DNA of 64,000 nucleotides from an uncultured Verrucomicrobiota bacterium (GTDB taxonomy: Bacteria > Verrucomicrobiota > Verrucomicrobiia > Palsa-1439), in contig CAIKAP010000081.1 in assembly GCA_903825435.1 (NCBI GenBank), forward strand, positions 13,118-77,117, read 5' to 3'. Of the stretch, positions 13,967 to 43,375 are shown piece after piece (positions within the stretch are counted from its first letter, which is position 1; each line of letters starts with the position of its first letter). A program made the translations under genes and the position numbers. The notes beneath the pieces were generated by a model. That model did no database searches. It had not been told where the DNA came from and saw only the letters and a program-made list of their open reading frames with translations.

Positions 13967-14887
13967 GTGACCGAACGACAAAAAGGAATCATCGCACTGG
14001 CGGTCGTGTTGGTGGCGTGGAGCCTGTCGAGCGTGTTCGTGAAGTACCTGATCCGCGAAGGCTACGACGCGCATACGCAGAACTTCTACCGCTACGCCGC
14101 CGGCACGCTCGTCGTGTTGCCGTTCCTGGCCCGCAGCGTCCGCCAGCGCGGCGTGAAACCGAACCGGCGGTTGCTCCTCCTGCTGTTGCTGGCGACGATT
14201 CCCAACCTGAGCCATCAGATTTGCTGGACCGTGTCGCTGAACTGGATCAACCCAGGCCTGGCGTCGTTCCTGAACAAGTCCAGCGTCCTGTTCGCCGCGC
14301 TGCTGGCGTTCGTGTTGTACGCCGAGGAACGCTGGCTGTGGCGGTCGCGCCGGTTCCTGGCGGGGCTGGGGCTGACGATTCTCGGCACCGTCGGGCTGGC
14401 GCTGCTGCGGGGCGACCTCGGCCGGGTCGAGTCGAACCTCGGCGTCGTGCTGGTGTTGATCGCGGCATTTTCGTGGGCCATGTACAGCGTCGCCGTCAAA
14501 CAGCCAACTTCGGAGGCCGGTTCGACGTTTTCGTTCGGCGTTGTCGGCCTCTACACCACGGCGGTGTTGTGGCTCGCGGCGCTGCGCTGGGGCGACCTCG
14601 GCCTGTGGTGGCGCGCCCCGTGGCACGTGAACGCCATCATGATTCTCTCCGGCGTGTTCTGCATCGGCATCGCGCACACCTGCTATTATTACGCCATGCA
14701 GCGGCTGACCGTTTCGGTGTGCGCCACGATGCTGCTGACAACGCCGGTGGGCACGCTGCTGATCTCGCGGTGGATGTTCCACGAGGAGATGACCGCCGGG
14801 CAACTCGTCTCGGGTGTGGTCCTCATCGTCGGCGCCTTCCTGACGCTGCTGGCGAAGGACAAAACTGTCGTGGCAGAACCGGTTTAG
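13967..14887 (+). CDS. EamA/DMT-family transporter
   Basis: 10-TM protein with two EamA-like halves; 306 aa. Confidence 0.6.
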   Translation: MTERQKGIIALAVVLVAWSLSSVFVKYLIREGYDAHTQNFYRYAAGTLVVLPFLARSVRQRGVKPNRRLLLLLLLATIPNLSHQICWTVSLNWINPGLASFLNKSSVLFAALLAFVLYAEERWLWRSRRFLAGLGLTILGTVGLALLRGDLGRVESNLGVVLVLIAAFSWAMYSVAVKQPTSEAGSTFSFGVVGLYTTAVLWLAALRWGDLGLWWRAPWHVNAIMILSGVFCIGIAHTCYYYAMQRLTVSVCATMLLTTPVGTLLISRWMFHEEMTAGQLVSGVVLIVGAFLTLLAKDKTVVAEPV

Positions 14888-16332
14888 CGATGCCCGCCGA
14901 GATCGGAATCGTACACGTAGCCTTCCTCGCCGTGTTCGCTGACGTCGAGGCCTTGCATCTCAAGCTCCGGTTCGACGCGGAGGTCGCCCAGTAACTTGCC
15001 GACGAGCCACGCGATGGCCAGCGTGGCACCGACCGACCATACCAACATCAGGCCGCCAGCCTTGAGCTGTTCCAGCCAGAGCGTCTTGCCGACGAGACCG
15101 TTCAGGTTCGTCGCGAGGTTCGGGTTGATCTTCGTCGAGGCAAACACCCCGGCCAGGATCGTCCCGAGCGTGCCGCCGACGGCGTGGACGCCAAACGTGT
15201 CGAGCGAATCGTCATAGCCGAACTTTGATTTCAGCTTGCTGCACGACAGGAACGTCGCCGTGCCCGCCACCGCGCCAATCAGAATCGCCGAACCGGCGCT
15301 GACAAAACCGCAGCCGGGCGTGATCGTCGCCAGACCCGCGACGGCACCGGAACAGAAGCCGAGCACGCTCGGTTTGCCGCGCGTGATGTACTCGATACCG
15401 GCCCACGCGACGCTACCGACTGCGGCGGCCAACGTGGTGGCGACAAACGCGTTCGACGCGATGCCGTCGGCCGCGACCGCGCTGCCGGCGTTGAAGCCGT
15501 ACCAGCCGACCCACAACATGCCGGTGCCAACCATGCAGAGCACCATCGAGTGCGGCGGCATCGGTTCCTTGCCGTGGCCGAGACGTTTGCCGAGGAAGAT
15601 GCAGAGCGCCAACGCCGACCAGCCGCTGGTCATGTGAACAACGATGCCGCCTGCGAAATCAATCGCCTTGATCTTGGCGTCGGGATTGGCGAGGCCGTTC
15701 ATCCAGCCGCCGTTGCCCCAGATCAGGTGCGCCGCGGGGAAATAGACGATGAACATCCAGAGCGTGCTGAACAACAGAATGGCGGAGAACTTCATCCGTT
15801 CGGCGATGGCGCCGATGATGAGCGCCGGGGTGATGATGGCGAACATGAGCTGATAGATCGCGAAGATGTTGTGCGAGACCCACGAGGCGTAGTCGGGGTT
15901 CGGCGTGGCGTCAACGTTTTTGAAGAAGGCAAATCCAAATCCGCCGAGGAAGCCGTTGCCCTTGCCGAAACAGAGGCTGTAGCCAACGGCCCACCACAAC
16001 ACCGACACCAGCCCGGCAAGGCCGAGGCATTGCGCCAGCACCGAAAGCACGTTCTTGCGGCGCACGAGGCCGCCGTAGAACAGCGCCAGCCCCGGCAACG
16101 TCATGAACAACACCAGCGCCGACGAGACCATCATCCAGCCGTTGTGGCCCGGCCCCGGCCCGGCGACCTTGGTTGCCGTGGTGGTGCGGGCCGTGTTGTT
16201 GAGGTAAGCCTCAATGTCGGCGACGCGCTGTTCGAGCGTCGGTTCCTTCGCGGGCGCGTCCGCGGCGCGAAGCGTGTTGGCAAAACACAGTGCGAGCAAC
16301 AAAACGACACAATACCGGCGTATCAAGTGCAT
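14884..16332 (-). CDS. amt: ammonium transporter with N-terminal signal peptide/coiled-coil extension
   Basis: Amt signatures (GGIVVHMTSGWSALALCIFLGKR); start set at MHLIRRY (ATG 16330-16332, AGGAG upstream) rather than ORF start 16416. Confidence 0.85.
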   Translation of the reverse strand: MHLIRRYCVVLLLALCFANTLRAADAPAKEPTLEQRVADIEAYLNNTARTTTATKVAGPGPGHNGWMMVSSALVLFMTLPGLALFYGGLVRRKNVLSVLAQCLGLAGLVSVLWWAVGYSLCFGKGNGFLGGFGFAFFKNVDATPNPDYASWVSHNIFAIYQLMFAIITPALIIGAIAERMKFSAILLFSTLWMFIVYFPAAHLIWGNGGWMNGLANPDAKIKAIDFAGGIVVHMTSGWSALALCIFLGKRLGHGKEPMPPHSMVLCMVGTGMLWVGWYGFNAGSAVAADGIASNAFVATTLAAAVGSVAWAGIEYITRGKPSVLGFCSGAVAGLATITPGCGFVSAGSAILIGAVAGTATFLSCSKLKSKFGYDDSLDTFGVHAVGGTLGTILAGVFASTKINPNLATNLNGLVGKTLWLEQLKAGGLMLVWSVGATLAIAWLVGKLLGDLRVEPELEMQGLDVSEHGEEGYVYDSDLGGHR

Positions 16333-16365
16333 AACAAAACTCTCCTTCGTCAGGAGGCCGTCGGA

Positions 16366-16382
16366 ATGCAATACCTGTGCCA
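16366..16382 (-). promoter_or_regulatory. sigma-54 (-24/-12) promoter for amt
   Basis: minus strand reads CTGGCACAGGTATTGCATT = TGGCAC-N5-TTGCA, about 45 bp upstream of the amt ATG. Confidence 0.7.
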
Positions 16383-16471
16383 GTCGCAATGGTGTGGTTT
16401 TCAACCTCCACCACAACAGTCACTTCCGGTTTTGCGATGAACACACACCAACATCGCTGGTCGTCGAAAAC

Positions 16472-16496
16472 TGACCAGCGTGGTCAAATCACGCCA
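16472..16496. promoter_or_regulatory. palindromic upstream site TGACCAGCGTGGTCAAATCACGCCA (putative enhancer-binding-protein UAS)
   Basis: TGACCA-N3-TGGTCA inverted repeat ~90 bp upstream of the sigma-54 promoter; related copies at 18424, 29767, 36667, 43288. Confidence 0.5.
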
Positions 16497-16508
16497 ATAC
16501 CGTTTCGC

Positions 16509-18285
<1,777 letters not shown>

Positions 18286-18382: not shown

Positions 18383-18450
18383 CAACCGGAATAAAACCGG
18401 AACATGACGCCGGTGCGGTCAACTAACCAACGTGGTCAATTTCCGACACC
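18383..18450. repeat. 68-bp composite repeat: GTTCCGG element (rc) + TAACCAACGTGGTCAATTTCCGACACC upstream site; left copy of kdp-flanking direct repeat
   Basis: about 91% identical to 29727-29792; lies in the divergent amt/kdpA intergenic region. Confidence 0.75.
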
Positions 18451-18523: not shown

Positions 18524-20176
18524 ATGAAACAGAACGAAGTCTTTCAACTGCTGGCGTTCTTCGGACTGCTCGTCGCGCTCGCACCGTTGCTTGGTGCGTA
18601 CATGGCGCGGGTTTTCGATGGCCAGCCACGTAAATTGGAGCGGCTGATCTACCGGCTCGGCGGCGTACGTGCTGACGAGGAGATGTCGTGGAAACGATAT
18701 TTTGCCGCGGTGTTGCTGTTCAATGTCGTCGGTATAGTCACGCTGATGGCCATCGAGATGACGCAGGCGTGGCTGCCATTCAACCCTCAGCATCTCCCGA
18801 ATGTTCCGTGGGCGCTGGCGTTGAACACCGCCATCAGTTTCATCACGAACACCAACTGGCAGGCGTACTCTGGTGAAAACACGATGAGTTACTTCACTCA
18901 GATGGCCGGGCTGGCGGTGCACAATTTCCTCAGCGCCGCCACCGGCATCGCAGTGTTGCTGGCGCTGGCGCGCGGCCTGAAACGCGCCTCGGCACAGTCA
19001 CTCGGCAGTTTCTGGGTGGACCTCACGCGCGCGACACTCTACGTGCTGCTGCCGTTGTCATTGGTCCTGTCTGTCATATTAGTCTCACAAGGCGTCGTAC
19101 AAAATCTCGCACCCTACCGGACCGTGAAGACACTCGAAGGCGCAGAACAAGTCATTCCCGGCGGCCCGGCCGCATCTCAGGTTGCGATCAAACAACTCGG
19201 CACCAACGGCGGGGGCTTCTTCGGCCAGAACAGCGCGCATCCGTTCGAGAATCCGACGCCGCTCAGCAACTTCGTCGAGATGTTCGGCTTGCTGATTGTG
19301 GCGGCATCGCTGGTGTACGCGTTCGGCTTGCTCGTCGGCGACAAACGGCATGCCTGGTGTCTGTTCGGCGTGATGTTGGTCCTGTTGGTTGGCAGCTTCG
19401 CGGTGGCGTGGTGGGCCGAAAGCCAGTCCGCCGGCAACATGGAAGGCAAGGAACAACGCTTCGGCGTCATGAACAGCGTGCTCTTCGCCGTCGCCACCAC
19501 AGGCACCTCTTGTGGCGCAGTAAACGCGATGCACGACAGTTTCACGCCGCTGGCGGGGCTGATGCCGATGTGGAACATGATGCTCGGCTGCATCGCGTTT
19601 GGCGGCGTCGGCGCCGGTCTGTATGGAATGATGATGCACGTGCTGTTGACGGTGTTCATCGCCGGGCTGATGGTCGGGCGGACGCCGGAATATCTCGGCA
19701 AGAAAATCCAGGCGTGGGAAGCGACGTGGGCCGTCGTGGCGATTCTGATCCCGAACTTCCTGATTCTGATCGGCTCGGCGGTCGCGTGCAGCGTCGCGAC
19801 CGGGCTTGCCGGCCTGAACAACGCCGGGCCGCACGGCTTGAGTGAAATCTTTTACGCCTACGCCTCCGCCTCGAACAACAACGGCAGCGCCTTTGCCGGC
19901 CTGAACGTGAACACCTACTTCTACAATCTCACGCTCGGCGGCGCGATGTTCCTCGGCCGGTTCGGCGTCATCCTCGCCGTGCTCGCCATTGCCGGTCACC
20001 TTGCCGCGAAGAAGACCGTACCGGCGTCACCGGGAACGTTCCCGACCAACGGACTGACGTTCGCCTGTGTGCTGTTCGGCGTCATCATCATCATCGGCGC
20101 GCTGACGTTCTTCCCCGCGCTTTGCCTCGGGCCAATCGTCGAGCATGGACTCATGCTGACCGGAAGGAATTTCTAA
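18524..20176 (+). CDS. kdpA: potassium-transporting ATPase subunit A
   Basis: aligns along its length with E. coli KdpA ([35 protein letters not shown]); start at MKQNEV preferred over ORF start 18503. Confidence 0.9.
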
Positions 20177-22230
20177 TGAGTACCAAAGTCGAAATCAAAT
20201 ACTCCGAGCTGGTCCGCCACGCGGTCATTGACGCCTTCAAGAAGCTCGACCCGCGCGACGAGATCAAGAACCTGGTCATGTTCGTCGTCTATGTTGGCGC
20301 GATCCTGAGCACCGGCGTTTTGTTCCGGAATTGTTCCGGCTTCAATATCCAGATCTGCCTCTGGCTCTGGTTTACGTGCCTCTTCGCGAATTTCGCCGAG
20401 GCGATGGCCGAGGGCCGCGGCAAGGCGCACGCCGACGCGTTGAAGAAGATGCGGACGAAGACGCTGGCCCGCAAACGCGACGGCCAGCGAGTCAACGCCG
20501 CCGAGCTGCGCAAGGGCGACGAAGTTGTCTGCGAAGCCGGTGACACCATCCCCGCCGACGGCGAAATCATCGAAGGCATCGCGACCGTTGACGAATCCGC
20601 CATCACCGGCGAGTCCGCGCCCGTCATCCGCGAAAGCGGCGGCGACCGCAGCGCCGTCACCGGTGGCACGCGCGTCATCAGCGACAAGATCATCATTCGC
20701 GTCACCGCCGATGCCGGCAACTCGTTCCTCGACCGGATGATTTCGATGATCGAAGGCGCGCGCCGGCAAAAAACACCGAACGAAATCGCGTTGAACATCC
20801 TTCTCGTCAGCCTGACCGCACTGTTTATCCTCGTCGTCATCACGTTGCCGGCGTTCGCCCGGTACAACGAGAAGGCCGCGAGCCAGACCGGTGTGGTGCT
20901 CACAACGCTGCCGGTGTTGCTGGCACTGATTGTGTGTTTAATCCCGACGACCATCGGCGGCCTGCTCAGCGCTATTGGCATTGCCGGCATTGACCGGTTG
21001 ATGCGGCGCAACGTGCTCGCCACCAGCGGACGCGCCGTCGAGGCGGCGGGTGACGTGGACGTGTTGCTGCTCGACAAGACCGGCACGATCACACTCGGCA
21101 ACCGGATGGCGACGGAATTCATTCCTGCGCCCAGTGTGAAGATCGAGGAACTCGCCGACGCCGCGCAACTCGCGTCGCTTGCCGACGAAACGCCGGAAGG
21201 ACGTTCCATCGTTGTGCTCGCGAAGGAAAAACACGGACTCCGTGGCCGCGAAGTCGCCGAGCCGCACGCCGTGCCGGTGCCGTTCACGGCGCAGACCCGG
21301 ATGAGCGGCGTGGATTTTGGCGACGGCACGCGCCGCATCCGCAAAGGGGCGACCGAGGCCGTCCAGGCGTTTGTCGAATCGCAAGGCGGTGTCATGCCGA
21401 AAGCTGTGACGCAAATCGTCGAACAGATTTCGCGCAGTGGCGGCACGCCGCTAGTCGTGTGCGACGGCAAGAACGTGCTTGGTGTCATCCAACTCAAGGA
21501 CGTTGTCAAAGGCGGCATCAAGGAGCGTTTCGCCCAGCTCCGCAAAATGGGCGTGCGCACCGTGATGATTACCGGCGACAACCCGCTGACCGCCGCCGCC
21601 ATCGCCGCCGAGGCGGGCGTGGATGATTTCATCGCGCAGGCGAAACCCGAAGACAAACTCGCCCGCATCCGTCACGAGCAAGCTGGCGGCAAATTGATCG
21701 CGATGATCGGCGACGGCACGAACGACGCTCCTGCGTTGGCGCAAGCCGATGTCGGCGTCGCGATGAACACCGGCACGCAAGCCGCCCGCGAAGCTGGGAA
21801 CATGGTGGACCTCGACTCGAATCCGACAAAGCTGATTGAGGTCGTCGAGATCGGCAAGCAACTCTTGATGACGCGCGGCGCGTTGACGACGTTTAGCATC
21901 GCCAACGACGTGTCAAAATATTTCGCAATCCTGCCGGCAATGTTCGGCGTACTCTACGCGACGACTGCGCTGGGTAAAGGCCCGCTCGACAAGTTGAACG
22001 TCATGCACCTGCACTCGCCGGAGAGCGCAATCCTTAGTGCGGTGATTTTCAACGCGCTGATCATCGTCGCGCTGATTCCGCTGGCGTTGCGCGGCGTGAA
22101 GTACCAGCCGCTCGGCGCCGCCGTAATCCTGCGCAAGAACATGCTGATCTACGGCGTCGGCGGCCTCATCATTCCGTTCATCTTCATCAAACTGATCGAC
22201 ATCGCGCTCGTCGCATTGAGGCTCGCATGA
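20176..22230 (+). CDS. kdpB: potassium-transporting ATPase subunit B (P-type ATPase)
   Basis: [21 protein letters not shown] motifs; ATG overlaps kdpA stop (TAATGA). Confidence 0.9.
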
Positions 22231-22769
22231 AACTACTCATCCAATCCATTTTGTTGACGGTCATTTTCACCATCATCACCGGCATCCTGTATCCGCTGGC
22301 GATTACCGGCATCGCACAAGTCGCGTTTCCCCGGCAAGCCAACGGCGACGTGACGCTGCTGGCGCAGAAATTTACCGGCGATAAATACTTCTGGCCGCGT
22401 CCGTCGGCCTGCGATTACGCGACCGTGCCGTCCGGCGCCAGCAACCTCGGCCCGACCAGCGCAGCGCTGCAATCCAACGTCGCCGCGCGCGTGGCGTTGC
22501 TCGGCACGAATGCACCCGCCGACATGCTGTATGCTTCCGGCAGTGGGCTTGACCCGCACATCAGTCCGGAGGCGGCACGCTTTCAAGTTAAGCGCGTCGC
22601 GGCGGCGCGCACCGCCGAGGTCGCCAAGGTGAGCGCGCTCGTTGAAAGGTTCATCGAGCCGCTGCAGTGGGGCTTTCTCGGCGAGCCGCGTGTGAATGTT
22701 TTGAAACTAAATCTGGCGCTCGACCAACAAGAATCAGGAGGGCATCATGAAGATCAAGCCCGGCATTAA
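22227..22769 (+). CDS. kdpC: potassium-transporting ATPase subunit C
   Basis: 180 aa, N-terminal TM helix, KdpC-like; overlaps kdpB stop. Confidence 0.85.
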
Positions 22770-23667
22770 AGACGTTCTGTGGATGGCCGCCGGTGCGGCT
22801 ATCCTGCTCGTGGTCATCGTGGCGATGTTGCATTTCTACAAAGACTGGAATCCTGCTGCGCAACTCGCCTTCAAAGCCCGTCGAGGTGATCTGGTGGGAC
22901 GGATGCAATTGGACCTGGCCTCTGCCTCGGAGACGGAGAAAAGTGCGGTTCTCGCCATCACCGATGAAGAGTCACAGAAGTTCGCCGACCAAGCCCGCGC
23001 AGCGTCGGCAAAGGTGGAGCAGGAACGTCGTGAACTCGGAGAACTTCTGGCGGCAGGCGGCACGCAAGGCGAGAAGGATCTGCTGGCTCAATTCGCCACG
23101 GCTTTCGCCGAGTTTCAGCACATTGACAACGATCTGCTCGCGTTGGCGGTCAAGAACACCAACCTCAAGGCGTCCAGCCTCACGTTCGGCCCGGCCGCCG
23201 CCGCGCTGAAGGAAATGGACGCCGCGCTGGCGCGGCTCATGACCGACGACGCGAAAGTCGTGCGCCTCGCTGACGACGCACGGATCGCCGCGTGGCGGCT
23301 GCTGGCGTTGCTGCCGCCGCACATCGCCGAGGAGGACGAAAAGAAGGAAGACGCGATGGAAGCGTTGATGGCCACGGAAGATGCGCAGGTCCGTAAAAAT
23401 CTGGATATGCTCGCGGCGCTCCCGCAATTCACCAGCAATCCCGAACTGGCAACCGCCGCGGCGCGTTATGCCGAGTTCAGCAAACTCAAAACACAAATCC
23501 TCGCACTCTCCCGCGAGAACACCAACGTCCGTTCGCTGTCCATATCGCTGAATCAAAAGCGCAAGGTGACACTGGTGTGCCAGGACGCGCTGAACGCCTT
23601 GCAGCAGGCCATCCAGGCGGAACCCATCGCCGGGGTTACGTACGGAAAACCGATGAGTCCGCGTTGA
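22747..23667 (+). CDS. membrane-anchored coiled-coil hypothetical protein, translationally coupled to kdpC
   Basis: overlaps kdpC 3' end by 23 nt; single N-terminal TM then helical Ala/Leu-rich domain; no recognisable catalytic motif. Confidence 0.45.
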   Translation: MKIKPGIKDVLWMAAGAAILLVVIVAMLHFYKDWNPAAQLAFKARRGDLVGRMQLDLASASETEKSAVLAITDEESQKFADQARAASAKVEQERRELGELLAAGGTQGEKDLLAQFATAFAEFQHIDNDLLALAVKNTNLKASSLTFGPAAAALKEMDAALARLMTDDAKVVRLADDARIAAWRLLALLPPHIAEEDEKKEDAMEALMATEDAQVRKNLDMLAALPQFTSNPELATAAARYAEFSKLKTQILALSRENTNVRSLSISLNQKRKVTLVCQDALNALQQAIQAEPIAGVTYGKPMSPR

Positions 23668-23729
23668 CTGGCGGCAGTTGCAGTTACCGTCCTCTCTTTG
23701 TTGTAGATGCTTGCCTCCCGATGTGGCTT

Positions 23730-24683
23730 CTAAAGTGAGCAAAGCCAGCGCGTCAAAGAGGCGATTTGGCCTTCGTCGGTAAGGTTGGCAGCATTTTCAA
23801 TCTTACCGGATTGAAGCTGCGACCAGATTTCTTTTGCCATTTTCGTTTCGATGGCCGCGCCAATGAAGAACGTGTGGGGTTTCTGTTTGTGCTTGGCGAA
23901 CGATGTTTGGATGCGATCCAGAGCGGTGCGGGCGGTCTTCCAGTGTTCGTCCGCACCGGCAGGGTCAATGCCGCCTTTCAATTCGCCGAGTGCGATGTAG
24001 GCTGCGGCGTTGCCGTATACCTGCCGGCACAGGGCTTCGGGGGCGGAGTTGAAAAGCGACAGATCAACGTTGTTGCGAAATAACGGCACCGTCAGGTTGT
24101 AGATCAAGGTTCTGGTCTTACCATTGATCTGCCAACTCAGGCCGCGGACGTGGAGTTCTATGTCGGCGTCATCTTCTGGCGTGTCCGACCAGACGTTGCT
24201 CTCACCGTGCAACCACCGGTAGCCGTTGCCCGCTAATTTGAGGTGCGCGATGATCGAGCGCGTAAGTTTGCACTGTGCCATGAAACCGCCAGCATTTCGC
24301 ATTGAGCCGCCCAACGTATCGCCGCGTGTGAGCAAGAATCGGAAGACAAGTTCCTCAACAAAATTCATACCGGCTGGTTCGAGAAAATTCGCGATTAGCT
24401 CTTCGACGGCTTTGCGCTTGTCGGCCTTTTGTAGGTGGTTCGCAGCCTTGTCGGAAATGCCGGCTGCCGTTACCAGTCCGGATTGGATTGCTGGAATCTT
24501 CAGGAGGTCAGACGGTCGCTGTGCTTGAGATGCAGCAGCCTTCAAGGCACGCGCCTGAACCACATAGGGAGTCGCTCGGCGGTTCTTCTCCAATGCGAGC
24601 GCGACAAAGCCGGCACGAACGGCTTCATAGGTGGTTTCAAGATCAGCCGCAGACTTCAGGTGGGAGCGATAGGGTTTGTTCAT
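23730..24683 (-). CDS. putative Type II restriction endonuclease (partner of adjacent methyltransferase)
   Basis: 317 aa, no recognised family; tail-to-head with the MTase 3 bp away; reduced GC; assignment is by context. Confidence 0.45.
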
Positions 24684-24686
24684 GGT

Positions 24687-26276
24687 TCAACGTTTCCGCC
24701 AGACGTACACGCATTTTCGCAGCGGGTCGCGTCCGTGTGCGCCCATTTGTTGGCTGCTGTTTCCTTTTCCGTTTGGCAAAACCAAAATGCTTTCGATGTT
24801 GAAGCCGAGTTGTGCGGCCATTTCCGAGAGAATAAGGTCCACCGCAATGCTCGCACCGGCATAGCGCACGTTGTCATTGACCATGATAAGCGGCGCGCCA
24901 CGTTTCAACACGCGGACACTCTCGGCAATGACACAGGCCATTTCGTAGAAGTACCCTCGCACCATACGAGGAATGCCGGTATTGTTCAGCAGGTCGAGTT
25001 CTCGCTGAGAATCCAGATACCGCAGGATGCGTTGAAGCAGGGGGAGTTCGTTTGCCACGGCCAGAGCGTGTTTCCACTTTGGATTGAGTGCAAGCATGTC
25101 CTTCTCACGGTTCTCGACGGTGCAACTTAACATAGCCTGTCGCAGTTTAACCAAGCCAGCCTCGTCCACGCCGAGCAACGCAAGTTCCAACGCGTATGTG
25201 CGGGTGTAGTCGTAGCGGTTGCAGTAGGGCGGCGATGTGAGAATACAGTCGTAAGCAGCAGCTTTGAACGTCGGCATGATCTCCAAACAAGAACCGCTGT
25301 GCAAAACCACGTCGGCGCGCGAGTGTGTCGTGAAAAACAAGTCTTCGGGAATTGTTGCTGCTCCGAGATCGTCAACGATCTCGCCGAGTTTGCCTTTGAT
25401 GGCTTCATCGAAAGGTTGAATCCGTCCTTTGTCGAAGATCTTCTTCCCGATACGACGACCGGAACGATAATCCCATCGCAGATACTGCCCATCCTTGCGC
25501 GTAAAACCGACCGACTCAAGAACGCAAAGCAATGCGAACCGTAGAATCGCCTTCACAACGTCGTTCTCATGCTCGGAAGCGGCCAAGTATCTCCCGATGG
25601 CTTTGACTGTCGCCGGTGGGTACGCCCCCTTCGTGATGCGTAGTTCGTTAATCGAACGGCATTCCTTGGAGTGTTGCCACGGTTGCCGAACCTTCCATCG
25701 TGTGAGCGTTTCGATGTCTGGAGGACGGAACTCCAAATCAATCATCTGCTTGGTTTCGATGATGGTCTGCCCGATTGGCAGAAGTTCGATTCCTTCCGCT
25801 TTCATTCCCATCGCGCCAGCCGCAAACAAGGCCGTGCCACTCCCTGCAAATGGATCGAGCAGGACGCCGGAGGACAAATGGAAACGATTCAGAAAATGCT
25901 CAACCAGTCCGGCGGAAAACGCTTCCTTGTATTTGTACCACCGGTAAACGGCGCGGCTTTTGTTCGCCTGAAAGCTCACGAGCGAGCGCGTCAGTTCGTT
26001 GGCGACAACGATCTTGTGTCGCCAACGACGCTCCAAATCAGAACTTAAGGCGTCAATCTCCCGCAGTGCCGGGGAATCCACAACCTCGCCGTTCTTGGGC
26101 TCGCGCGCATCATCTAAAACGGCCGGAGACGCCAGCGCAAAAGATACAGACTGCACCTTCCTTGGCGGCTGTTCCATCGTTTGGGTGCCGAGCGTTTCCT
26201 CACGCACACGGGGTGTGCGGCGCTTCTTCGGCAAATACGTGACTTGTTTCCTCGGCATCAGCGCGGAGTATGCCAA
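24687..26276 (-). CDS. alpha-class DNA methyltransferase (N4-cytosine or N6-adenine; motif I ... TRD ... SPPY)
   Basis: motif I LLDPFAGSGT about 280 aa before motif IV ILTSPPYCNRYDYT; true start may be internal (MEQPP). Confidence 0.75.
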   Translation of the reverse strand: MAYSALMPRKQVTYLPKKRRTPRVREETLGTQTMEQPPRKVQSVSFALASPAVLDDAREPKNGEVVDSPALREIDALSSDLERRWRHKIVVANELTRSLVSFQANKSRAVYRWYKYKEAFSAGLVEHFLNRFHLSSGVLLDPFAGSGTALFAAGAMGMKAEGIELLPIGQTIIETKQMIDLEFRPPDIETLTRWKVRQPWQHSKECRSINELRITKGAYPPATVKAIGRYLAASEHENDVVKAILRFALLCVLESVGFTRKDGQYLRWDYRSGRRIGKKIFDKGRIQPFDEAIKGKLGEIVDDLGAATIPEDLFFTTHSRADVVLHSGSCLEIMPTFKAAAYDCILTSPPYCNRYDYTRTYALELALLGVDEAGLVKLRQAMLSCTVENREKDMLALNPKWKHALAVANELPLLQRILRYLDSQRELDLLNNTGIPRMVRGYFYEMACVIAESVRVLKRGAPLIMVNDNVRYAGASIAVDLILSEMAAQLGFNIESILVLPNGKGNSSQQMGAHGRDPLRKCVYVWRKR

Positions 26277-26304
26277 CGCGGGCCGGTTGGCGCAAGCTTG
26301 CGTT

Positions 26305-26327
26305 ATGTTCCGGTTTTGTTCCGGCTG
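26305..26327 (+). repeat. GTTCCGG direct-repeat element (ATGTTCCGGTTTTGTTCCGGCTG); opens 15-codon uORF 26305-26352 (MFRFCSGCFLAFGLR)
   Basis: between MTase start and kdpD ATG (26371); uORF stop TAA at 26350-26352. Confidence 0.8.
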
Positions 26328-26370
26328 CTTTCTTGCGTTCGGACTTCGTTAAGTACATACTCCCGTCACC

Positions 26371-29025
26371 ATGACCGAGCCGCAACGACCGGATCCGGAC
26401 AAGCTGTTGGCGTCGCTCCAGCGCGCGGAGGCGAAACGTCAGCGGGGACGGCTGAAGATTTTCTTCGGCATGTGTCCGGGTGTCGGCAAAACCTACGCGA
26501 TGCTGGAGAGCGCGCGCCGGTTGGTGGCGCAGCGCGAGGATGTCGTGGTCGGGCTGGTCGAGACGCACGGCCGGACGGAGACGGCGGCGTTGCTGGAAGG
26601 TCTGACTATCGCACCACGCAAGAAAATTCCCTATCGCGGCGTGACGCTGGAGGAAATGGATCTCGACTGGATTCTCCAGCGACGTCCGCAGGTCGCAGTC
26701 GTGGACGAACTGGCTCACACGAACGCGCCGGGTTCGCGTCACGTGAAGCGGTACCAAGACGTACTCGAATTGCTGGATGCCGGGATTGATGTGTTGACGA
26801 CGTTGAATGTCCAGCACATCGCCAGCCGGGCGGACACGGTGCGGCAGATTTCGGGCGTGGCGGTGCACGAGACGGTGCCGGACACGGTGTTCGAGGCGGC
26901 GGATGAGATCGAGCTGGTGGATTTGTCGGTCGAGGATTTGCGGAAGCGGCTGGAGGAGGGGAAGGTTTATCTCGGCGAGCGCGCGATGACGGCGGCGGAG
27001 AATTTCTTCCGGGAAGGCAACCTGAGCGCGCTGCGCGAAATGTCGTTGCGGCTGACGGCCGAGCGCGTGGACCAACAGGTGCGCGAGTCGCGCGAGGACC
27101 AGCAGGTTGCGGAAGTCTGGAAGGCAGGCGAACGGTTGATGGTCGCGGTGAGCAGCAGCCCGGCGTCGGCGCGGTTGATCCGGTGGACGCGACGGATGGC
27201 GTTTGCGTTGAAGGCGCCGTGGCTGGCGGTGTGTGTGAAGCCGACGCGCAAGCTGACGGAGGACGCCGAGCGGCAGTTGACGAGCAACCTCGAAGTGGCG
27301 CGCGAACTCGGCGCGGAAGTCGTGATGACCAGCGGCGACGATATCGTCGAGGCGCTGTTGCGCGTGGCGCGCGAGCACAACGTCACGCAGATTGTCGTCG
27401 GCCAATCCGGACAACATCCGCTTATCGAGATGTTGCGTGGCGGCATCGTGAACCGGCTGACGCGGCTGGCGGGCGACATTGACGTGTACGTCGTGCGCTC
27501 GGAAAGCGGGCAACAACGGTGGCGGTGGCGTCTGCCCGAGCCGTCGTTGCGGTCGCCGCCGCGCGAGTACGCGATCAGCGCGGCGACGGTGGCGGGGTTG
27601 ACGCTGGTGAACTGGTTTATCGCGCCGGTGGCGGGTTACCAGGCGGTGGCGTTGTTCTATCTGCTGGCAATCGTGGTGCTGGCGCTGGCGCTCGGACGCG
27701 GTCCGGTGATGCTGGCGGCGCTGTTGGGCGCGCTATTGTGGGATTACCTGTTCATCCCGCCGTTGTTTACGTTCTACATCTCGAAGTTTTCCGACATCAC
27801 GATGTTGGCGGCGTACTTCGTCGTGGCGCTGGTGACCGGCCACCTGACGTCGCGGCTGCGCGCGCAACAGATCGCGGAGCGGCGCCGCGAAGAGCGCGCG
27901 ACGGCGTTGTACGAGCTGGCGCGCGACGTGGCGGGCGCGGCAAATCTCAGCGAGGTGATCGGCTTGGCGTCGCGGCAGGTGGGGGCGTTGTTCGGTTGCG
28001 ATCTGGCGGTGTTGTTGCCCACGGCCAACGGCCTCGCCGCGCACGCGGCCGGCAGCGCGATGGTGGACGAGAAGGAGCGTGGCGTGGCGCAATGGGCGCT
28101 CGATCACCGGCAGACGGCGGGCCGGTTCACGGACACGCTGCCGTCGTCGCGCGGGATGTACGTGCCGTTGCGGGCGGCGAGCGGCTGCGTCGGCGTGATG
28201 GGCGTGTTGTCGCGCGAGGAGCGGGAGTTGACGCTGGAGCAGCGGGATTTGCTGGAGACGTTCGCGTCGCAGATCGCGATGGTGATCGAACGGGAACGGT
28301 TGCAGACGGAGGCGCACGGCGCGGAGGTGCTGTCGCAAGCGGAGCAATTGCACCGGACGTTGTTGAACTCGGTGTCGCACGAGTTGCGGATTCCAATCGC
28401 CGCTGTGCTGGCGGCGGCGGAAGGCTTGGAGAAACGGGTCGCGCCGACGGAGAATTCGCTCGTCGGCGAAATCCGCGAGGCGGCGCTGCGATTGAACGCG
28501 CTCGTGCGAAACCTGCTGGACATGGCGCGGCTGGAGTCGGGGATGTTGAAGCCGAAGATGGAATGGTTCGAGGTCGGCGAACTGGTCAACGCGGTCGTGG
28601 AGGAACATTTCAAATTGTTCGAGCATCACGAGCTGTCGTTGTCGCTGCCGGACGGGCTGCCGTTGGTGTACGGCGATTTTGGATTGCTGCAACAAGCGCT
28701 CGGTAACCTGCTCCAGAACGCGCGCCGCTACACGCCTTCCGGCACCGAGATCAAAATCTCGGCGGCGGTGGACGAGCGGGAGTTGTTGTTGAGCGTCGCC
28801 GACAACGGTCCCGGCTTCGGCGTGGACAATCCGGAAATGTTGTTCCAGAAATTCCAGCGCGGCGCGGGCGCGGCGCCGGGCGGAGCGGGGCTTGGTCTGT
28901 CGATTGTAAAAGGTTTTGTCGAAGCGCACGGCGGGCGCGTCGAGGCGCGCAATCGCGACGACGGCGGTGCGCAGGTGACGATCCGGTTGCCGCTGCCGCA
29001 ACAACCGAAGGAGCTGGCGACATGA
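26371..29025 (+). CDS. kdpD: KdpD sensor histidine kinase
   Basis: N-terminal KdpD domain (KIFFGMCPGVGKTYAML), Usp-like domain, 4 TM, HisKA (LNSVSHELRIPI) and HATPase (GLGLSIV) regions. Confidence 0.9.
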   Translation: MTEPQRPDPDKLLASLQRAEAKRQRGRLKIFFGMCPGVGKTYAMLESARRLVAQREDVVVGLVETHGRTETAALLEGLTIAPRKKIPYRGVTLEEMDLDWILQRRPQVAVVDELAHTNAPGSRHVKRYQDVLELLDAGIDVLTTLNVQHIASRADTVRQISGVAVHETVPDTVFEAADEIELVDLSVEDLRKRLEEGKVYLGERAMTAAENFFREGNLSALREMSLRLTAERVDQQVRESREDQQVAEVWKAGERLMVAVSSSPASARLIRWTRRMAFALKAPWLAVCVKPTRKLTEDAERQLTSNLEVARELGAEVVMTSGDDIVEALLRVAREHNVTQIVVGQSGQHPLIEMLRGGIVNRLTRLAGDIDVYVVRSESGQQRWRWRLPEPSLRSPPREYAISAATVAGLTLVNWFIAPVAGYQAVALFYLLAIVVLALALGRGPVMLAALLGALLWDYLFIPPLFTFYISKFSDITMLAAYFVVALVTGHLTSRLRAQQIAERRREERATALYELARDVAGAANLSEVIGLASRQVGALFGCDLAVLLPTANGLAAHAAGSAMVDEKERGVAQWALDHRQTAGRFTDTLPSSRGMYVPLRAASGCVGVMGVLSREERELTLEQRDLLETFASQIAMVIERERLQTEAHGAEVLSQAEQLHRTLLNSVSHELRIPIAAVLAAAEGLEKRVAPTENSLVGEIREAALRLNALVRNLLDMARLESGMLKPKMEWFEVGELVNAVVEEHFKLFEHHELSLSLPDGLPLVYGDFGLLQQALGNLLQNARRYTPSGTEIKISAAVDERELLLSVADNGPGFGVDNPEMLFQKFQRGAGAAPGGAGLGLSIVKGFVEAHGGRVEARNRDDGGAQVTIRLPLPQQPKELAT

Positions 29026-29693
29026 GTCCGGTGGCGTTGATCATCGAGGACGAAATCCAGATGCGGCGCCTGTTGCGCGTCGGCCTGGAAGGCGCGGGCT
29101 ACAAAGTCGGCGAGGCGTCGGACGGCCAGCAGGGATTGCAGGAGATCGTGTACCAGCGACCCGACGTGGTGCTGCTCGATTTGGGATTGCCCGACATGGA
29201 CGGCGTCGAGGTGCTGAAACGGTTGCGCGAGTGGTCGCATGTGCCGGTGGTGGTGTTGACAGTGCGCGAGGACGAACACGACAAGGTCCGTGCGCTCGAC
29301 GCGGGCGCGGACGATTACCTGACGAAACCGTTCAGCACGGCGGAACTGCTGGCGCGGTTGCGGGCCGTGCAACGGCGCGCGCCCGAGGCGCAGGAGGAAC
29401 CGGTGTTTGTGTGCGGTGATCTCACGATGGATTTCGTCGCGCGAACGGTGGCGGTGAAGGGCAGGGAGGTGCATCTGACGGCGACGGAGTATTCGCTATT
29501 GCACGAACTGGTTCGCCACGCAGGTAAGGTGGTGACGCACAAACAACTGTTGCGCGCCGTCTGGGGACCGCAGGCCGAGACGCAGTCGCAGTACCTGCGC
29601 GTCTACATCACGCACGTGCGCCAGAAGTTGGAGTCCGCGGGCCGTCTGATCCGCAACGAGCCTGGTGTCGGCTACAGGTTGCTCACCGGCTAG
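29022..29693 (+). CDS. kdpE: KdpE OmpR-family response regulator
   Basis: receiver domain (VLLDLGLPDMDG) + winged-helix C-terminus; overlaps kdpD stop. Confidence 0.9.
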   Translation: MSPVALIIEDEIQMRRLLRVGLEGAGYKVGEASDGQQGLQEIVYQRPDVVLLDLGLPDMDGVEVLKRLREWSHVPVVVLTVREDEHDKVRALDAGADDYLTKPFSTAELLARLRAVQRRAPEAQEEPVFVCGDLTMDFVARTVAVKGREVHLTATEYSLLHELVRHAGKVVTHKQLLRAVWGPQAETQSQYLRVYITHVRQKLESAGRLIRNEPGVGYRLLTG

Positions 29694-29726
29694 ACACGGA
29701 TTGGTACCAGAAACCGGTAAAAACGC

Positions 29727-29792
29727 AGCCGGAACAAAACCGGAACATGACGCCGGTGCAGTCAACTAACCAGCGTGGTCAATTCCCGACAC
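29727..29792. repeat. right copy of 68-bp composite repeat (GTTCCGG element rc + TAACCAGCGTGGTCAATTCCCGACAC)
   Basis: about 91% identical to 18383-18450, same orientation, 34 bp after kdpE stop; no sigma-54 promoter or gene follows it. Confidence 0.75.
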
Positions 29793-29817
29793 TGCGTCGC
29801 ACCGCGTTGGCGAAACT

Positions 29818-30837
29818 TTAGCTTTGGCCGCTTTCTGCCTGCCGTGTAATCGCCGGTAACTGAAGCCTCTCGATTCGTTGCATGCCGAGAGGTTGGGGAC
29901 TTCCACCCGCCAGTACGCGACCGACGTTTTCTTGAATTGATACGACATCCCACTGAATGGTTTGATAGATCACATAGCGATCCTGCCACACATGCACGTG
30001 GTCGCGCATTTCCTTGACAAGAAGCTTTCTCGCTTTGTCGGACTGTTGAATCGCTTCTTCAAGCGGGACTTTGTAGGTCGGACTTGTGATGTAATTCAAC
30101 ATCTGTGTTGCCACGCGGTTCTTTTCTTCACCGTCCAGCTTCGCCTTGGTCATTTCGACGATGTGAGCGCGGCAAAGATGCGCGAGGGGCACAACTCCGA
30201 GTGGTGCAACGATCAGGACGTTGCCTTCACGCCCCAAACCGGTAAACCCCTTCTTGATACCCGTCGTGATTAGAATCGCGAAGTGAGCCTCACGAATTCG
30301 CTTTGCCTCCGCTGTTTGGTGAATGTGTGACGGCAAAATGCTGGGTGTTCGTTTGCACTCGTAGATAATCACACCAGCCTGACGCCCTTGAAAGATGACA
30401 GCATGGAGAATATCCCCTCCCTTGCCCTTGTGCTCGATTCGATCCTGAGGAAACTCCTTCTGTAGGCGTCTGCACAGTGTATCTTCAAACTCCAAGCCTT
30501 CTGTTTGCGGCGTCGTCCCTTTGGCCAATTGCGCGATGCGCGCATTCGCAATCTCCAACTTCTTCTGTAGTCCAGCCGTCAACCGTTCCTGCCGCTTTCT
30601 CTCCACCAGTGCTCCCTTCTTTTGCCCGTCTGCGTCTGCCTCTTTTAATCGTTGGCGTGTTTGGGAGAGTTGCTTCTTCAAGGAACTCGTGGCTTGTTGT
30701 GCCTGATGCAGCAGGCGATTGGCCTTCTCAATGTCTGCCTTCTGAGCCTTCTCCCTCTCGGCCTGAATATGCAGAACCGCTTCGTACTTGCCCTTCGCTA
30801 ACGTGCTTCCACAGAGCGGACACTTGTATGTCTTCAT
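29818..30837 (-). CDS. DUF2130-family protein (N-terminal zinc ribbon, coiled coil, C-terminal PD-(D/E)XK-like nuclease core)
   Basis: start MKTYKCPLCGS (GAGGAG RBS; ATG at 30835-30837); coiled-coil middle; D...ECK motif (GGDILHAV...IIYECKR); GC about 50%. Confidence 0.65.
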   Translation of the reverse strand: MKTYKCPLCGSTLAKGKYEAVLHIQAEREKAQKADIEKANRLLHQAQQATSSLKKQLSQTRQRLKEADADGQKKGALVERKRQERLTAGLQKKLEIANARIAQLAKGTTPQTEGLEFEDTLCRRLQKEFPQDRIEHKGKGGDILHAVIFQGRQAGVIIYECKRTPSILPSHIHQTAEAKRIREAHFAILITTGIKKGFTGLGREGNVLIVAPLGVVPLAHLCRAHIVEMTKAKLDGEEKNRVATQMLNYITSPTYKVPLEEAIQQSDKARKLLVKEMRDHVHVWQDRYVIYQTIQWDVVSIQENVGRVLAGGSPQPLGMQRIERLQLPAITRQAESGQS

Positions 30838-31112
30838 AGTCTCCTCGTGTAAGAAGGTTGCGACCGCTGGAGCGGTCTTGACCAATCAAAACCACTTCTG
30901 GCGAACGCTTTTGACGGGACTCGTGAATAGTCCGGAGATTTACTCCTGACACCGAACACTCGTCGGTGTTCCGGCAACACCGTATCTGCTGGCGTTTGTA
31001 GCAGTGTGGGCGCTTGAGCATTCTGTCCAGCGGCTTCTTCCTTCGTTTTCATTCCGCCACTTTATGCGAGGACATGGCAGCATAAAACAGACACGCGGTC
31101 TGAGGGGATGTC

Positions 31113-31883
31113 CTATTTTTTTGAGCGCGGCCGGCCGCGTTTTTTGAAGTGCAATCCGATTCGCCGACAGAGTTGCTGTACCATTTGCTGGTCTGCGAGT
31201 TCCAGTTCCGGTGTCTTGCCGCGCATTGAGGGAATGCGCGCCGTAAGCCAATGATACAACTCAGTCGTGCTACCGAGTGCTGAGACTTCCCACCAGTTTT
31301 CAAGCAGCGCCGAATAGATCGGTAAAGCGGTCGTGTGTCTGGCCGGCCTGCCCTGATCATCTAGAAGCTTAACGTGCAGTCCGCGAGCAAAGCCATCAAA
31401 CCACGCAATCGCGTGTTGGAAGGAAAAGAACTTCGCAGAGCCTATGCGCTGTTTGAGCGATTCAATCTGTTCTTCGTCCCTGAATAGTTTGTGTTCCTCT
31501 GTTGGGTGAAACTCTGAAGCCATCAAACAACCAGCATAAAAGCCTTCTTTTCGGCTCAAACTTTCTGGTGTCGCGTCATCTTCAATCTCCCATTTCGGCA
31601 ATGGAAACATCGCTTGGATTCTTTGACGAACAGTGACGACCCATTCAGGAACTGTTCGCTCCGACCAGAAGAGAAGCTCTTCCAACTCCTTTGGAACACA
31701 GTTTTCTCGTTTTATGTCCTCAAGAATGTCGTTCGGGAACATCGAGCGGATCATGGCGGACATCCATCGCACCAAGTAAAGCAAGCCCTCTATTTCGCGC
31801 GGGGGTCGTACCCCACGCCGCTTACAGTCCTCCGCAATCTCAATAACCTTGCGGAGTGCATCTTTGCTGGTGTCGTCCGACAT
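31113..31883 (-). CDS. hypothetical protein (no recognisable domain), co-oriented with the DUF2130 gene
   Basis: 256 aa, low GC, no TM; a GC-rich hairpin and stop codon lie at its 3' end. Confidence 0.5.
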   Translation of the reverse strand: MSDDTSKDALRKVIEIAEDCKRRGVRPPREIEGLLYLVRWMSAMIRSMFPNDILEDIKRENCVPKELEELLFWSERTVPEWVVTVRQRIQAMFPLPKWEIEDDATPESLSRKEGFYAGCLMASEFHPTEEHKLFRDEEQIESLKQRIGSAKFFSFQHAIAWFDGFARGLHVKLLDDQGRPARHTTALPIYSALLENWWEVSALGSTTELYHWLTARIPSMRGKTPELELADQQMVQQLCRRIGLHFKKRGRPRSKK

Positions 31884-31916
31884 GCAAGCATCCTACCTGT
31901 CATGTCGCCGGCACGC

Positions 31917-31985
31917 AAGCTGGAGTCCGCGAGCCGCCTGATCCGCAACGAGCCGGGCATCGGCTACCGGCTGTTGGCGGACTAA
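31917..31985 (+). pseudogene. orphan 3' fragment of an OmpR-family response-regulator gene (kdpE-like tail KLESASRLIRNEPGIGYRLLAD*)
   Basis: about 80% nucleotide and 18/22 amino-acid identity to the kdpE 3' end at 29625-29693; no receiver domain upstream. Confidence 0.7.
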
Positions 31986-34177: not shown

Positions 34178-35263
34178 TCACTGGCGAAACTCCGGGTAAC
34201 TCATCAATCCCGTCTCGCCGATATCCAGTCCTTCCCATTCGACCTCCGGCGCCACGCGCATCGGTGTCAACCGGTCCAGCGCCTTGAACAACACCCATGC
34301 GGCCGCGAATCCACCGCCGCCGAGCGCCGCCATGCCGGCGACTTGCGCCGCAAAATGTCCAGTACTGGCAAACGACGCGGCCAAAACGCCGCAGAGGCCG
34401 CCCGCGCCGTGGATCGAGATCGAACCGGCTGGGTCGTCAATTTTCACGCGGTCGAACCACGGCACCAGCACGCACGCCAGCAACCCGGCGACTGCGCCGG
34501 TGAACAGGCCGAACGTCGGCCCCGCGATGGCGCCGCTGGCGGCCAGCCCGGCCAACAGGCCGGTCACCGCGAGCGTCGGGTCGGGTTTGCCGTTTCGCAA
34601 CGTCATGAAAGTGACCGCAGCGATCGTGCCGCCTGCGCCCGCCAGCGCGGTGGTGGCGGCGTCGGCGTTGAGCGCGAGCCAGCCGACGCTGAGCAGCATG
34701 CTGCCGGTTAGCGCGAGCGGAACGTTGTGTGCAGGGATCGGCAGCGGGCGGCCGTCCTTGTTGTAGCGGCCGAGACGCGGACCGATGACCAGCGCACCGG
34801 CCAGTGCGACCGCGCCGCCGAAAAGATGAATCACGCCGGAGCCGCTGGGGTCGAGGTAGCCGAGCTTGGCGAGCCAGCCGCCATTCCAACTCCAGAGTGC
34901 GGCGACCGGCCAGAGCACGCCCGCAATGGCGAGCGCGCTGAGGTAGAAATGTTTAAGGCTCCAGCGTTCCGCGAGCGCGCCGATGGGGATGCAAACGACA
35001 ATCGCGGTGGTCGCGGCACGGAAAAGAAAGAGGGTGTTGTTGTCCGGAACATTTCCGGAACATCGGCTGCCGAGGAGCCAGAACGCGGCGAGCGCGAGCG
35101 CGGTGCCGAACAACGCGAGGAAAATGGTGTGACTGGCGTTTTTGGCCCGGCTCAGCCCGGCGGCCAGGAGAGAGAGGCCGCCGGGCATGAGGAGGACCAA
35201 CACGGCCGCCGCCGTAACCGACGAAGGAGACGCACTGACGACCGTGTTGGTGGGTATGGGCAT
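34178..35263 (-). CDS. short Amt/Rh-type ammonium channel (third paralog)
   Basis: 361 aa; VIHLFGGAVALAGALVIGPRLGRY and HGAGGLCGVLAA motifs; contains an in-frame GTTCCGG element (35044-35063) encoding RCSGNVPDN. Confidence 0.75.
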   Translation of the reverse strand: MPIPTNTVVSASPSSVTAAAVLVLLMPGGLSLLAAGLSRAKNASHTIFLALFGTALALAAFWLLGSRCSGNVPDNNTLFLFRAATTAIVVCIPIGALAERWSLKHFYLSALAIAGVLWPVAALWSWNGGWLAKLGYLDPSGSGVIHLFGGAVALAGALVIGPRLGRYNKDGRPLPIPAHNVPLALTGSMLLSVGWLALNADAATTALAGAGGTIAAVTFMTLRNGKPDPTLAVTGLLAGLAASGAIAGPTFGLFTGAVAGLLACVLVPWFDRVKIDDPAGSISIHGAGGLCGVLAASFASTGHFAAQVAGMAALGGGGFAAAWVLFKALDRLTPMRVAPEVEWEGLDIGETGLMSYPEFRQ

Positions 35264-43310: not shown

Positions 43311-43375
43311 GCCCGGCCGCCGACCGGTAAGGACAGGCTTGCCGCAGCCTGTGTGCGTTGGCATACTGCGCAGGC

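Follow-up and report, generated by a model that had tools for sequence, protein, structure and literature searches.

A restriction-modification (R-M) gene pair lies between the two parts of a kdp potassium locus on contig CAIKAP010000081.1 of an uncultured Pedosphaera-like verrucomicrobium, of which a stretch of 64 kb, here called the window, was analyzed. The Pedosphaera-like affiliation follows from the names that homologues carry. Based on a scan of open reading frames (ORFs) and on Pfam profiles, the pump genes kdpA, kdpB and kdpC and a gene for a membrane protein are located on the plus strand, and the sensor genes kdpD and kdpE follow on the same strand about 2.7 kb downstream. Two minus-strand genes, one for a 317-aa protein and one for a methyltransferase, occupy the interval (Table 1). 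This arrangement had been described in an earlier sequence-only reading of the same DNA and was found as described there, and so was the lower GC content of the two minus-strand genes (0.53-0.56, compared with 0.60-0.68 in the flanks). At third codon positions (GC3) the values are 0.63-0.64 for the R-M genes and 0.72-0.85 for the kdp genes. The membrane protein gene, called "a coupled small gene" in that reading, does overlap the kdpC stop, its start lying 23 nt inside kdpC, but it is not small: its 306-aa product is a 4HB_MCP-like (four-helix-bundle, 4HB) protein with 1772 homologues in the search, and the gene stands directly 3' of kdpC in six of six related loci. Judged by this position, the 4HB gene is the conserved last member of the kdpABC unit in the lineage. 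Ten contigs that were assembled independently from several samples and sources (ENA, JGI and Logan) match the window collinearly at 99.1-100% identity, and both cassette junctions are spanned in more than one of them; an assembly artefact is therefore excluded, and the arrangement is real and fixed in the population. Taken together with the evidence given below, the two minus-strand genes very probably constitute an intact Type IIP R-M pair of the AvaI/BsoBI family, a self-contained cassette of about 2.6 kb that was acquired horizontally into the kdp junction.

The 317-aa protein was said in the sequence-only reading to belong to no recognisable family, which proved to be wrong. The Pfam profile PF09194 (restriction endonuclease BsoBI) is matched over its whole length, residues 5-317 being aligned with positions 1-313 of 313 (E=1.8e-150, 501 bits against a cut-off of 25), and the PADLOC model REase_II for Type II endonucleases is matched at 1.7e-122. 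Alignment with the BsoBI crystal structure (PDB 1DC1, E=2.2e-113) gave 177 identical residues out of 315 (56%). In this alignment Asp212, Glu240, Lys242 and His253 of BsoBI correspond to D207, E234, K236 and H247, so all four are kept; we take their roles to be those reportedly assigned in BsoBI by van der Woerd et al. 2001 (listed as ref. 25 in PMC2441816), in which His253 was proposed to be catalytic. The protein sequence is identical across 14 contigs from different samples. The family to which it belongs has more than 5700 members, at 70-75% identity, in Verrucomicrobiota, Planctomycetota, Nitrospira, Gammaproteobacteria, Zixibacteria and others, and no phage record carrying the endonuclease was found in a search of such records. 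BsoBI itself is a Type IIP enzyme in the alpha branch of the PD-(D/E)XK nucleases (PMC4081073, PMC2441816). By homology, the 317-aa protein is a full-length Type IIP PD-(D/E)XK restriction endonuclease of the AvaI/BsoBI family, and its earlier placing as the cognate endonuclease holds, given the nuclease fold and the retained Asp, Glu, Lys and His.

The partner gene matches the PADLOC MTase_II model PDLC03224 over nearly its full length (E=2.5e-154). The mechanical ORF has 529 aa (24687-26276) and runs on to a TTG at 26276, whereas the start placed by gene callers and supported by homologues is the ATG at 26258, which gives 523 aa and is kept in three of the homologous cassettes found elsewhere (loci L023, L025 and L027). 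Alpha-class enzymes, as reportedly defined by Malone et al. 1995, carry motif I (FxGxG) N-terminal to motif IV ((S/D/N)PP(Y/F)), with a long recognition region between the two. In the present protein motif I precedes motif IV by 207 aa, and in the alignment with 2ZIE, a beta-class enzyme, the two segments change places, which agrees with the alpha-class call made from the sequence before. The SPPY form of motif IV is typical of N4-cytosine methyltransferases. A link to the endonuclease family came from the Ligilactobacillus plasmid pLAC3, on which the neighbour of an annotated AvaI/BsoBI-family endonuclease is 36% identical to the window protein over 481 aa (E=4e-91). Moreover, a methyltransferase of 497-523 aa accompanies the endonuclease in eight of eight loci examined in other organisms. 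On this sequence evidence the partner is an alpha-class amino-methyltransferase of the M.AvaI/M.BsoBI type. The ratio of nonsynonymous to synonymous substitution rates (dN/dS) is 0.05-0.10 for the endonuclease against three homologous cassettes and 0.11-0.18 for the methyltransferase against L025 and L023, the synonymous rate of the latter gene being saturated against the third; both genes have therefore been maintained by purifying selection.

The two genes form a compact unit in which the methyltransferase gene comes first and its stop lies 3 nt before the endonuclease ATG. The limits of the unit were defined by blastn from both sides. Homology to other copies of the cassette starts at 23717-23730 and ends at 26306-26326, and the kdp homology shared with the relatives breaks off at 23667-23675 and sets in again at 26369-26371, so that the cassette spans about 23717-26326. 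The stretch upstream of the methyltransferase gene still belongs to it, being homologous to the copies in L025 (91% nt identity) and L023 (81%). Within this stretch a conserved TTGCGC-N17-CATACT element (26267-26295), which ends 8 nt before the ATG, is probably a promoter carried with the cassette. No terminator-like hairpin was found in the 62-nt spacer between the convergent genes (folding z-scores -0.07 and +0.51), and scans for terminators, promoters and RNA families around the junctions gave nothing significant.

Cassettes of the same build, with a 317-aa endonuclease and the 3-nt junction, occur in four unrelated contexts: flanked by glycoside-hydrolase and other genes (L023/L024), next to a gene with an HZS-alpha domain (L025/L026), next to an aspartate kinase gene (L027) and in yet another context (L028). 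Their nucleotide identity to the window is 91% for L025, 81% for L023 and 75-77% for L027 and L028, and in L023, L025 and L027 the cassette is likewise poorer in GC than its flanks. The absence of the pair from related kdp loci, its presence in unrelated contexts, its deviant GC content and the spread of the family across phyla together argue for horizontal acquisition, as had been proposed from the sequence. How the cassette moved left no signature of a classical element. No integrase, transposase or other mobility gene was found between kdpC and kdpE by ORF scan and Pfam, and no mobility-gene family was recorded among the immediate cassette neighbours in L023-L028, small HNH and Bro-N genes lying 1-3 kb away in L027. 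Plasmid copies that stand beside insertion sequence (IS) elements or a recombinase gene are only distant ones (43-44% identical). Target duplications or terminal inverted repeats were considered and rejected, since just short chance repeats were found: flank-to-flank local alignments scored 14-16 against 15.5 +/- 2.2 for shuffled sequence, with no direct or inverted repeat above chance.

Table 1. Features of the kdp locus, the R-M cassette and the dispersed repeat. Positions are those of the window except in the last row, where they are those of the respective loci.
Feature	Position	Strand	Basis or remark
kdpA	18.5-20.2 kb	+	ORF scan and Pfam
kdpB	20176-22230	+	ORF scan and Pfam
kdpC	22227-22769	+	ORF scan and Pfam
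4HB_MCP-like membrane protein gene, 306 aa	22747-23667	+	Pfam PF12729
Spacer between convergent stops of 4HB and endonuclease genes, 62 nt	23668-23729		blastn, folding
Endonuclease gene, 317 aa	23730-24683	-	PF09194
Codon of catalytic H247	23943-23945	-	1DC1 alignment
Codon of catalytic K236	23976-23978	-	1DC1 alignment
Codon of catalytic E234	23982-23984	-	1DC1 alignment
Codon of catalytic D207	24063-24065	-	1DC1 alignment
Methyltransferase gene, 523 aa	24687-26258	-	PADLOC PDLC03224
Motif IV SPPY, aa 342	25224-25235	-	motif position
Motif I DPFAGSG, aa 135	25836-25856	-	motif position
Cassette upstream region	26259-26306	-	homology to L025 and L023 cassette copies
GTTCCGG-TTTT-GTTCCGG repeat copy	26307-26324	+	46 nt upstream of kdpD ATG, co-oriented with kdpD
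kdpD, 884 aa, intact	26371-29025	+	Pfam
kdpE, 223 aa, intact	29022-29693	+	Pfam
DUF2130 gene	29818-30837	-	second low-GC island
256-aa ORFan	31113-31883	-	second low-GC island
18-nt repeat sites	612, 2711, 18386, 20322, 26307, 29729, 35044, 36527, 39273, 46920, 52826, 56910, 63664		
Ser/Thr kinase gene(s) at the kdp junction of relatives	L019 3453-4514; L020 9071-11381; L151 6541-7599; L152 6935-9588		

The state of the junction before the cassette arrived can be judged from six related kdp loci (L019, L020, L021, L022, L151 and L152), which were recovered via homologues of the 4HB protein. The R-M pair is absent from all six. In four of them (L019, L020, L151 and L152), which include the three closest relatives, the interval from the 4HB gene to kdpD holds one or two Ser/Thr kinase genes in the same direction, and in L021 and L022 kdpD follows the 4HB gene after 62 nt with no kinase at the junction. 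The order kdpABC, 4HB gene, kinase gene(s), kdpDE in the relatives points to a kinase input into potassium sensing in this lineage. The kdp-linked kinases are 77-87% identical among the relatives, and the best match in the window is a paralogue of 50-60% identity fused to a PP2C domain (39294-41084); a relocated kdp kinase was therefore rejected, and the kinase is missing from the kdp locus of the window. The sequence-only reading had seen an insertion that splits an operon. A foreign cassette does lie at the junction, but a simple insertion does not describe it, because the closest relatives have a kinase there and the kdpD downstream is of another lineage. Since four of the six relatives, among them the three closest, carry kinase gene(s) at this position, it is more likely, as far as synteny can tell, that the cassette replaced the kinase than that it split an intact operon.

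The sensor gene next to the cassette has a history of its own. KdpD of the window is 50-53% identical to KdpD of the six relatives, which share 76-91% among themselves, while the corresponding values between window and relatives are 80-87% for KdpB, 74-83% for the 4HB protein and 68-73% for KdpE. The divergence of KdpD is spread along the whole protein, and unrelated KdpD clusters are as near to the window protein as the relatives' type is. Among 1.8 billion cluster representatives searched, the top matches to KdpD reached 52-53% identity; when a genome collection was scanned with KdpD peptides, a fragment of 58% identity and distant histidine kinases came up, but no close relative. These comparisons suggest a xenologous replacement of kdpD. 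Because KdpD is discordant and KdpB and the 4HB protein are not, the cassette lies on the border between the half of the operon that was inherited vertically and a sensor gene of other history. Upstream of kdpD, six of six relatives share a conserved TTTGAATGG-type box, which is not evident in the window. A second low-GC segment (29694-31916, GC 0.51-0.53, GC3 0.56-0.59) directly follows kdpE and holds two genes, one for a DUF2130 protein and one for an ORFan of 256 aa. It is delimited by two 68-nt copies of the kdpE 3' end (29625-29692 and 31917-31984, 81% identical), and no integrase is present in 29694-31984. With the kinase missing, a discordant KdpD and a second low-GC island, the junction is remodelled more widely than by the cassette alone.

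So wide a change could also have been brought about by the exchange of a larger block (about 23.7-31.9 kb), in which the cassette, a foreign kdpDE and the DUF2130/256-aa pair would have replaced kinase-kdpDE in one or a few linked events. The discordance of KdpD described above would be explained in this way, as would the copy of the kdpE 3' end left behind the second island, and 29-nt inverted copies of a repeat bracket kdpDE (see below). Yet in four other contexts the R-M cassette has no kdpDE with it, the discordance of KdpE is mild (71-87% among the relatives themselves), and the search turned up no donor whose KdpD is closer than the 53% identity of the best representatives. The GC3 values, 0.84-0.85 and host-like for kdpDE, 0.63-0.64 for the R-M genes and 0.56-0.59 for the DUF2130 pair, fit separate events better. 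Exchange of a block is thus regarded as unlikely, although it deserves consideration. That the pair is instead an ancestral, non-mobile part of the kdp loci of the lineage, for example with the methyltransferase recruited for regulation, is extremely improbable. Such an origin would suit the fixation of the pair in every population contig that spans the junction, as well as the divergent intergenic region that it shares with kdpD; it is opposed by the six related loci that lack the pair, by the occurrence of the same cassette at 75-91% nucleotide identity in unrelated contexts, by the deviant GC of its genes and by the spread of a classical restriction family across phyla.

Several observations weigh against horizontal acquisition of an intact CYCGRG-specific pair, or against parts of it. 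A consensus sigma-70 scan of 23400-26500 returned no promoter, so the promoter call is weak. No contig of the same species with an empty site was found, which means that insertion and replacement are not separable directly, and the lack of a junction kinase in L021 and L022 would also suit an ancestral site that was empty. The predicted CYCGRG specificity has the 56% identity to BsoBI as its sole basis. CYCGRG is depleted in the window (28 sites, 58-88 expected), but many palindromic hexamers are as depleted or more so: GAGCTC (0, with 11-18 expected), GGGCCC (0, 6-20), CAGCTG (1, 14-22), CTCGAG (2, 21-42), GTCGAC (4, 26-39) and CTGCAG (2, 14-16), and the non-palindromic CCCGAG/CTCGGG is modestly low. 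Avoidance of CYCGRG was accordingly set aside as proof of specificity, being consistent with it but non-specific; the general avoidance of palindromes suggests long exposure to many restriction systems. It might then be asked whether the system is decaying or half active, as a solitary methyltransferase beside a dead endonuclease, or has a specificity other than CYCGRG, given that the depletion is non-specific and that the family could hold variants of altered specificity. Both ORFs are full length relative to their profiles, however, none of the four catalytic residues or of the two methyltransferase motifs is lost, dN/dS lies at 0.05-0.18 and the endonuclease is the same protein in all 14 contigs. 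In addition, the 56% identity to BsoBI is close to the value of about 55% reported between AvaI and BsoBI, which are true isoschizomers. Decay or an altered specificity is therefore improbable. An intact, horizontally acquired pair of the AvaI/BsoBI family is the reading that we prefer.

The sequence-only reading had the insert end at a GTTCCGG element. This element is real, and the homology of the L025 cassette stops at its 3' edge (about 26326), but it is a dispersed genomic repeat and not an insertion signature. Its consensus, cgtcAT-GTTCCGG-WWWT-GTTCCGG-CTgc, consists of two direct repeats of 7 nt at a distance of 11 nt, a layout shared with the pho box. The window holds 12-13 copies against 0.07 expected (18-nt sites with up to 3 mismatches give 12), about one per 5 kb in both orientations, roughly half of them intergenic and half within genes. 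Intergenic copies were located upstream of amt, kdpD and a porin gene and just 3' of the stops of kdpE and of two phosphatase/kinase genes. The copy in kdpB (20322-20339, codons ~49-55) takes the form of ~31 nt, CACCGGCGTTTTGTTCCGGAATTGTTCCGGC, in place of 37 nt that code for a variable loop in three relatives, and the frame is kept. An insertion scar or attachment (att) site was rejected on account of the number of copies and because several lie inside genes, kdpB included. The repeat is absent from 56 kb of the relatives' loci L019-L022. Several metagenome contigs whose GC is similar to that of the window (L077, L078, L087, L104 and L131) also contain it, at a density of two copies per 3-8 kb. 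A metagenome scan for GTTCCGGNNNNGTTCCGG gave mostly chance matches, about a dozen loci with A/T-rich spacers and a GC of 0.55-0.63 resembling the repeat family, and a viral scan for the repeat found nothing.

The positions of some copies are suggestive. The only copy in L023 adjoins the methyltransferase start, inverted relative to the window, and at the corresponding position L025 shows a copy that is interrupted, so that three genomes in all have a copy at this end of the cassette. Inverted copies of 29 nt, 96.5% identical, bracket kdpDE (26300-26328, 43 nt before the kdpD ATG, and 29725-29753, 32 nt after the kdpE stop); a 64-nt direct repeat with the motif, 94% identical, brackets the whole kdp locus (18386-18449 between amt and kdpA, and 29729-29792 after kdpE); and another copy borders the DUF2130 island. 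On the strength of these positions the repeat could be a route of gene-module exchange in the Pedosphaera-like lineage, as a DNA-uptake-type signal or a recombination site, which we consider a speculative and rather unlikely proposal; a regulator site was a further idea considered. The notion that low-GC islands always lie 5' of a repeat copy was weakened by an 822-aa gene (36735-39203, plus strand; GC 0.47-0.53), which is flanked by outward-pointing inverted copies (36527 and 39273), and by copies in other organisms that show no GC step. The 822-aa protein has no Pfam or PADLOC match and is conserved at 72-89% identity in more than 100 Pedosphaera-like assemblies, so the gene belongs to the lineage core and is not an island. 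If the exchange proposal were true, the R-M cassette would belong to a set of several modules, moved in a way that has so far not been described in Verrucomicrobiota. The dispersed repeat is in this respect a more curious feature than the R-M pair and could lead somewhere new.

Some further genes may be mentioned. Another R-M gene of the window (43358-46075, plus strand) encodes a 905-aa MmeI-like Type IIG protein with MmeI helicase-spacer, methyltransferase, target recognition (TRD) and C-terminal domains, and L022 has an MmeI/Eco57I-like gene just upstream of kdpA. Three ammonium-transporter genes occur in the window (14884-18285 and 34178-35263). Two of them flank a P-II gene, two copies are 82% identical over 447 nt (15457-15903 and 17410-17856), and the copy at 34178-35263 adjoins an OmpL-like porin gene.

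Based on the family to which the enzymes belong, a working of the cassette can be proposed. The methyltransferase and endonuclease genes would be read as one minus-strand unit, probably from the candidate promoter of the cassette. The methyltransferase most likely sets N4-methylcytosine (m4C) in the predicted CYCGRG site, and the endonuclease, probably a homodimer, would cut unmethylated sites by means of D207, E234 and K236 together with H247, with a predicted cut after the first C. Unmodified incoming DNA would thereby be restricted, and, like other Type II pairs, the cassette would penalise its own loss, a post-segregational stabilisation of the locus. Entry was probably by recombination with flanking DNA, in the manner of a "minimal mobile element" (see below). 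With respect to the kdp genes, the cassette is convergent with kdpABC and the 4HB gene and divergent from kdpD, the methyltransferase ATG and the kdpD ATG being 112 nt apart. In E. coli, part of the kdpDE expression is due to transcripts that start at the kdpFABC promoter and read through. Here, read-through from the pump promoter would have to cross 2.6 kb of opposed, antisense genes, and kdpDE therefore probably depends on signals within the 112-nt divergent region. An uncoupling of kdpDE from kdpFABC read-through, as suggested in the sequence-only reading, is plausible; set apart from the pump promoter, the sensor pair could be expressed differently.

For biology, the pair predicts a testable m4C motif at CYCGRG in an uncultured freshwater verrucomicrobium. 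The junction between the 4HB gene and kdpD appears as a hot spot at which the content of the kdp locus is swapped, whether kinase genes, an R-M pair or a different kdpD, and this bears on how potassium sensing is wired.

Compared with known systems, the R-M pair is ordinary, a fresh example of the well-known and very widespread AvaI/BsoBI family at a variable site. Its endonuclease and methyltransferase belong to the same families as those of AvaI from Anabaena variabilis and BsoBI from Bacillus stearothermophilus, the host here being an uncultured Pedosphaera-like verrucomicrobium. AvaI and BsoBI reportedly both recognise CYCGRG and are about 55% identical, and both methylases are said to carry N4-cytosine motifs (reported by Ruan et al. 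1996, Mol Gen Genet 252:695). In gene order the window pair, with the methyltransferase first, differs from BsoBI and the plasmid copies of Firmicutes, in which the endonuclease gene precedes, and is like AvaI, for which avaIM is reported to precede avaIR. The copies in Enterococcus and Ligilactobacillus are surrounded by IS elements or a plasmid backbone, and the window cassette has neither. Relative to a kdpFABC-kdpDE locus of the E. coli type, the window has the full set of kdpA, kdpB, kdpC, kdpD and kdpE, each of them intact and all in one direction; the additions are the 4HB_MCP-like gene after kdpC and the R-M pair, which sets the pump and sensor units 2.7 kb apart, and in the relatives the Ser/Thr kinase genes before kdpD.

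The sequence-only reading considered it unusual for an R-M cassette to split such an operon, which was an overstatement, as R-M units between conserved genes without mobility genes have already been described (PMC2853133, PMC1797815). R-M units behave as mobile elements that enter by insertion or by allelic substitution between conserved genes (Furuta, Abe & Kobayashi 2010, PMC2853133), and in Neisseria "minimal mobile elements" are alternative small gene sets, R-M systems among them, at one site between conserved genes (PMC1797815). The window cassette resembles both in being a two-gene R-M unit of deviant composition, with alternative occupants (kinase genes or nothing) in relatives and no integrase or transposase. 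The "long target duplication" class of the former authors does not apply, because no such duplication is present at the window cassette. The comparison made here is between genera at 74-87% protein identity and not between strains of one species, and natural transformation is not known for this organism. With this difference in mind, allelic substitution or the Neisseria "minimal mobile element" would be the closer analogy for the cassette at the kdp junction.

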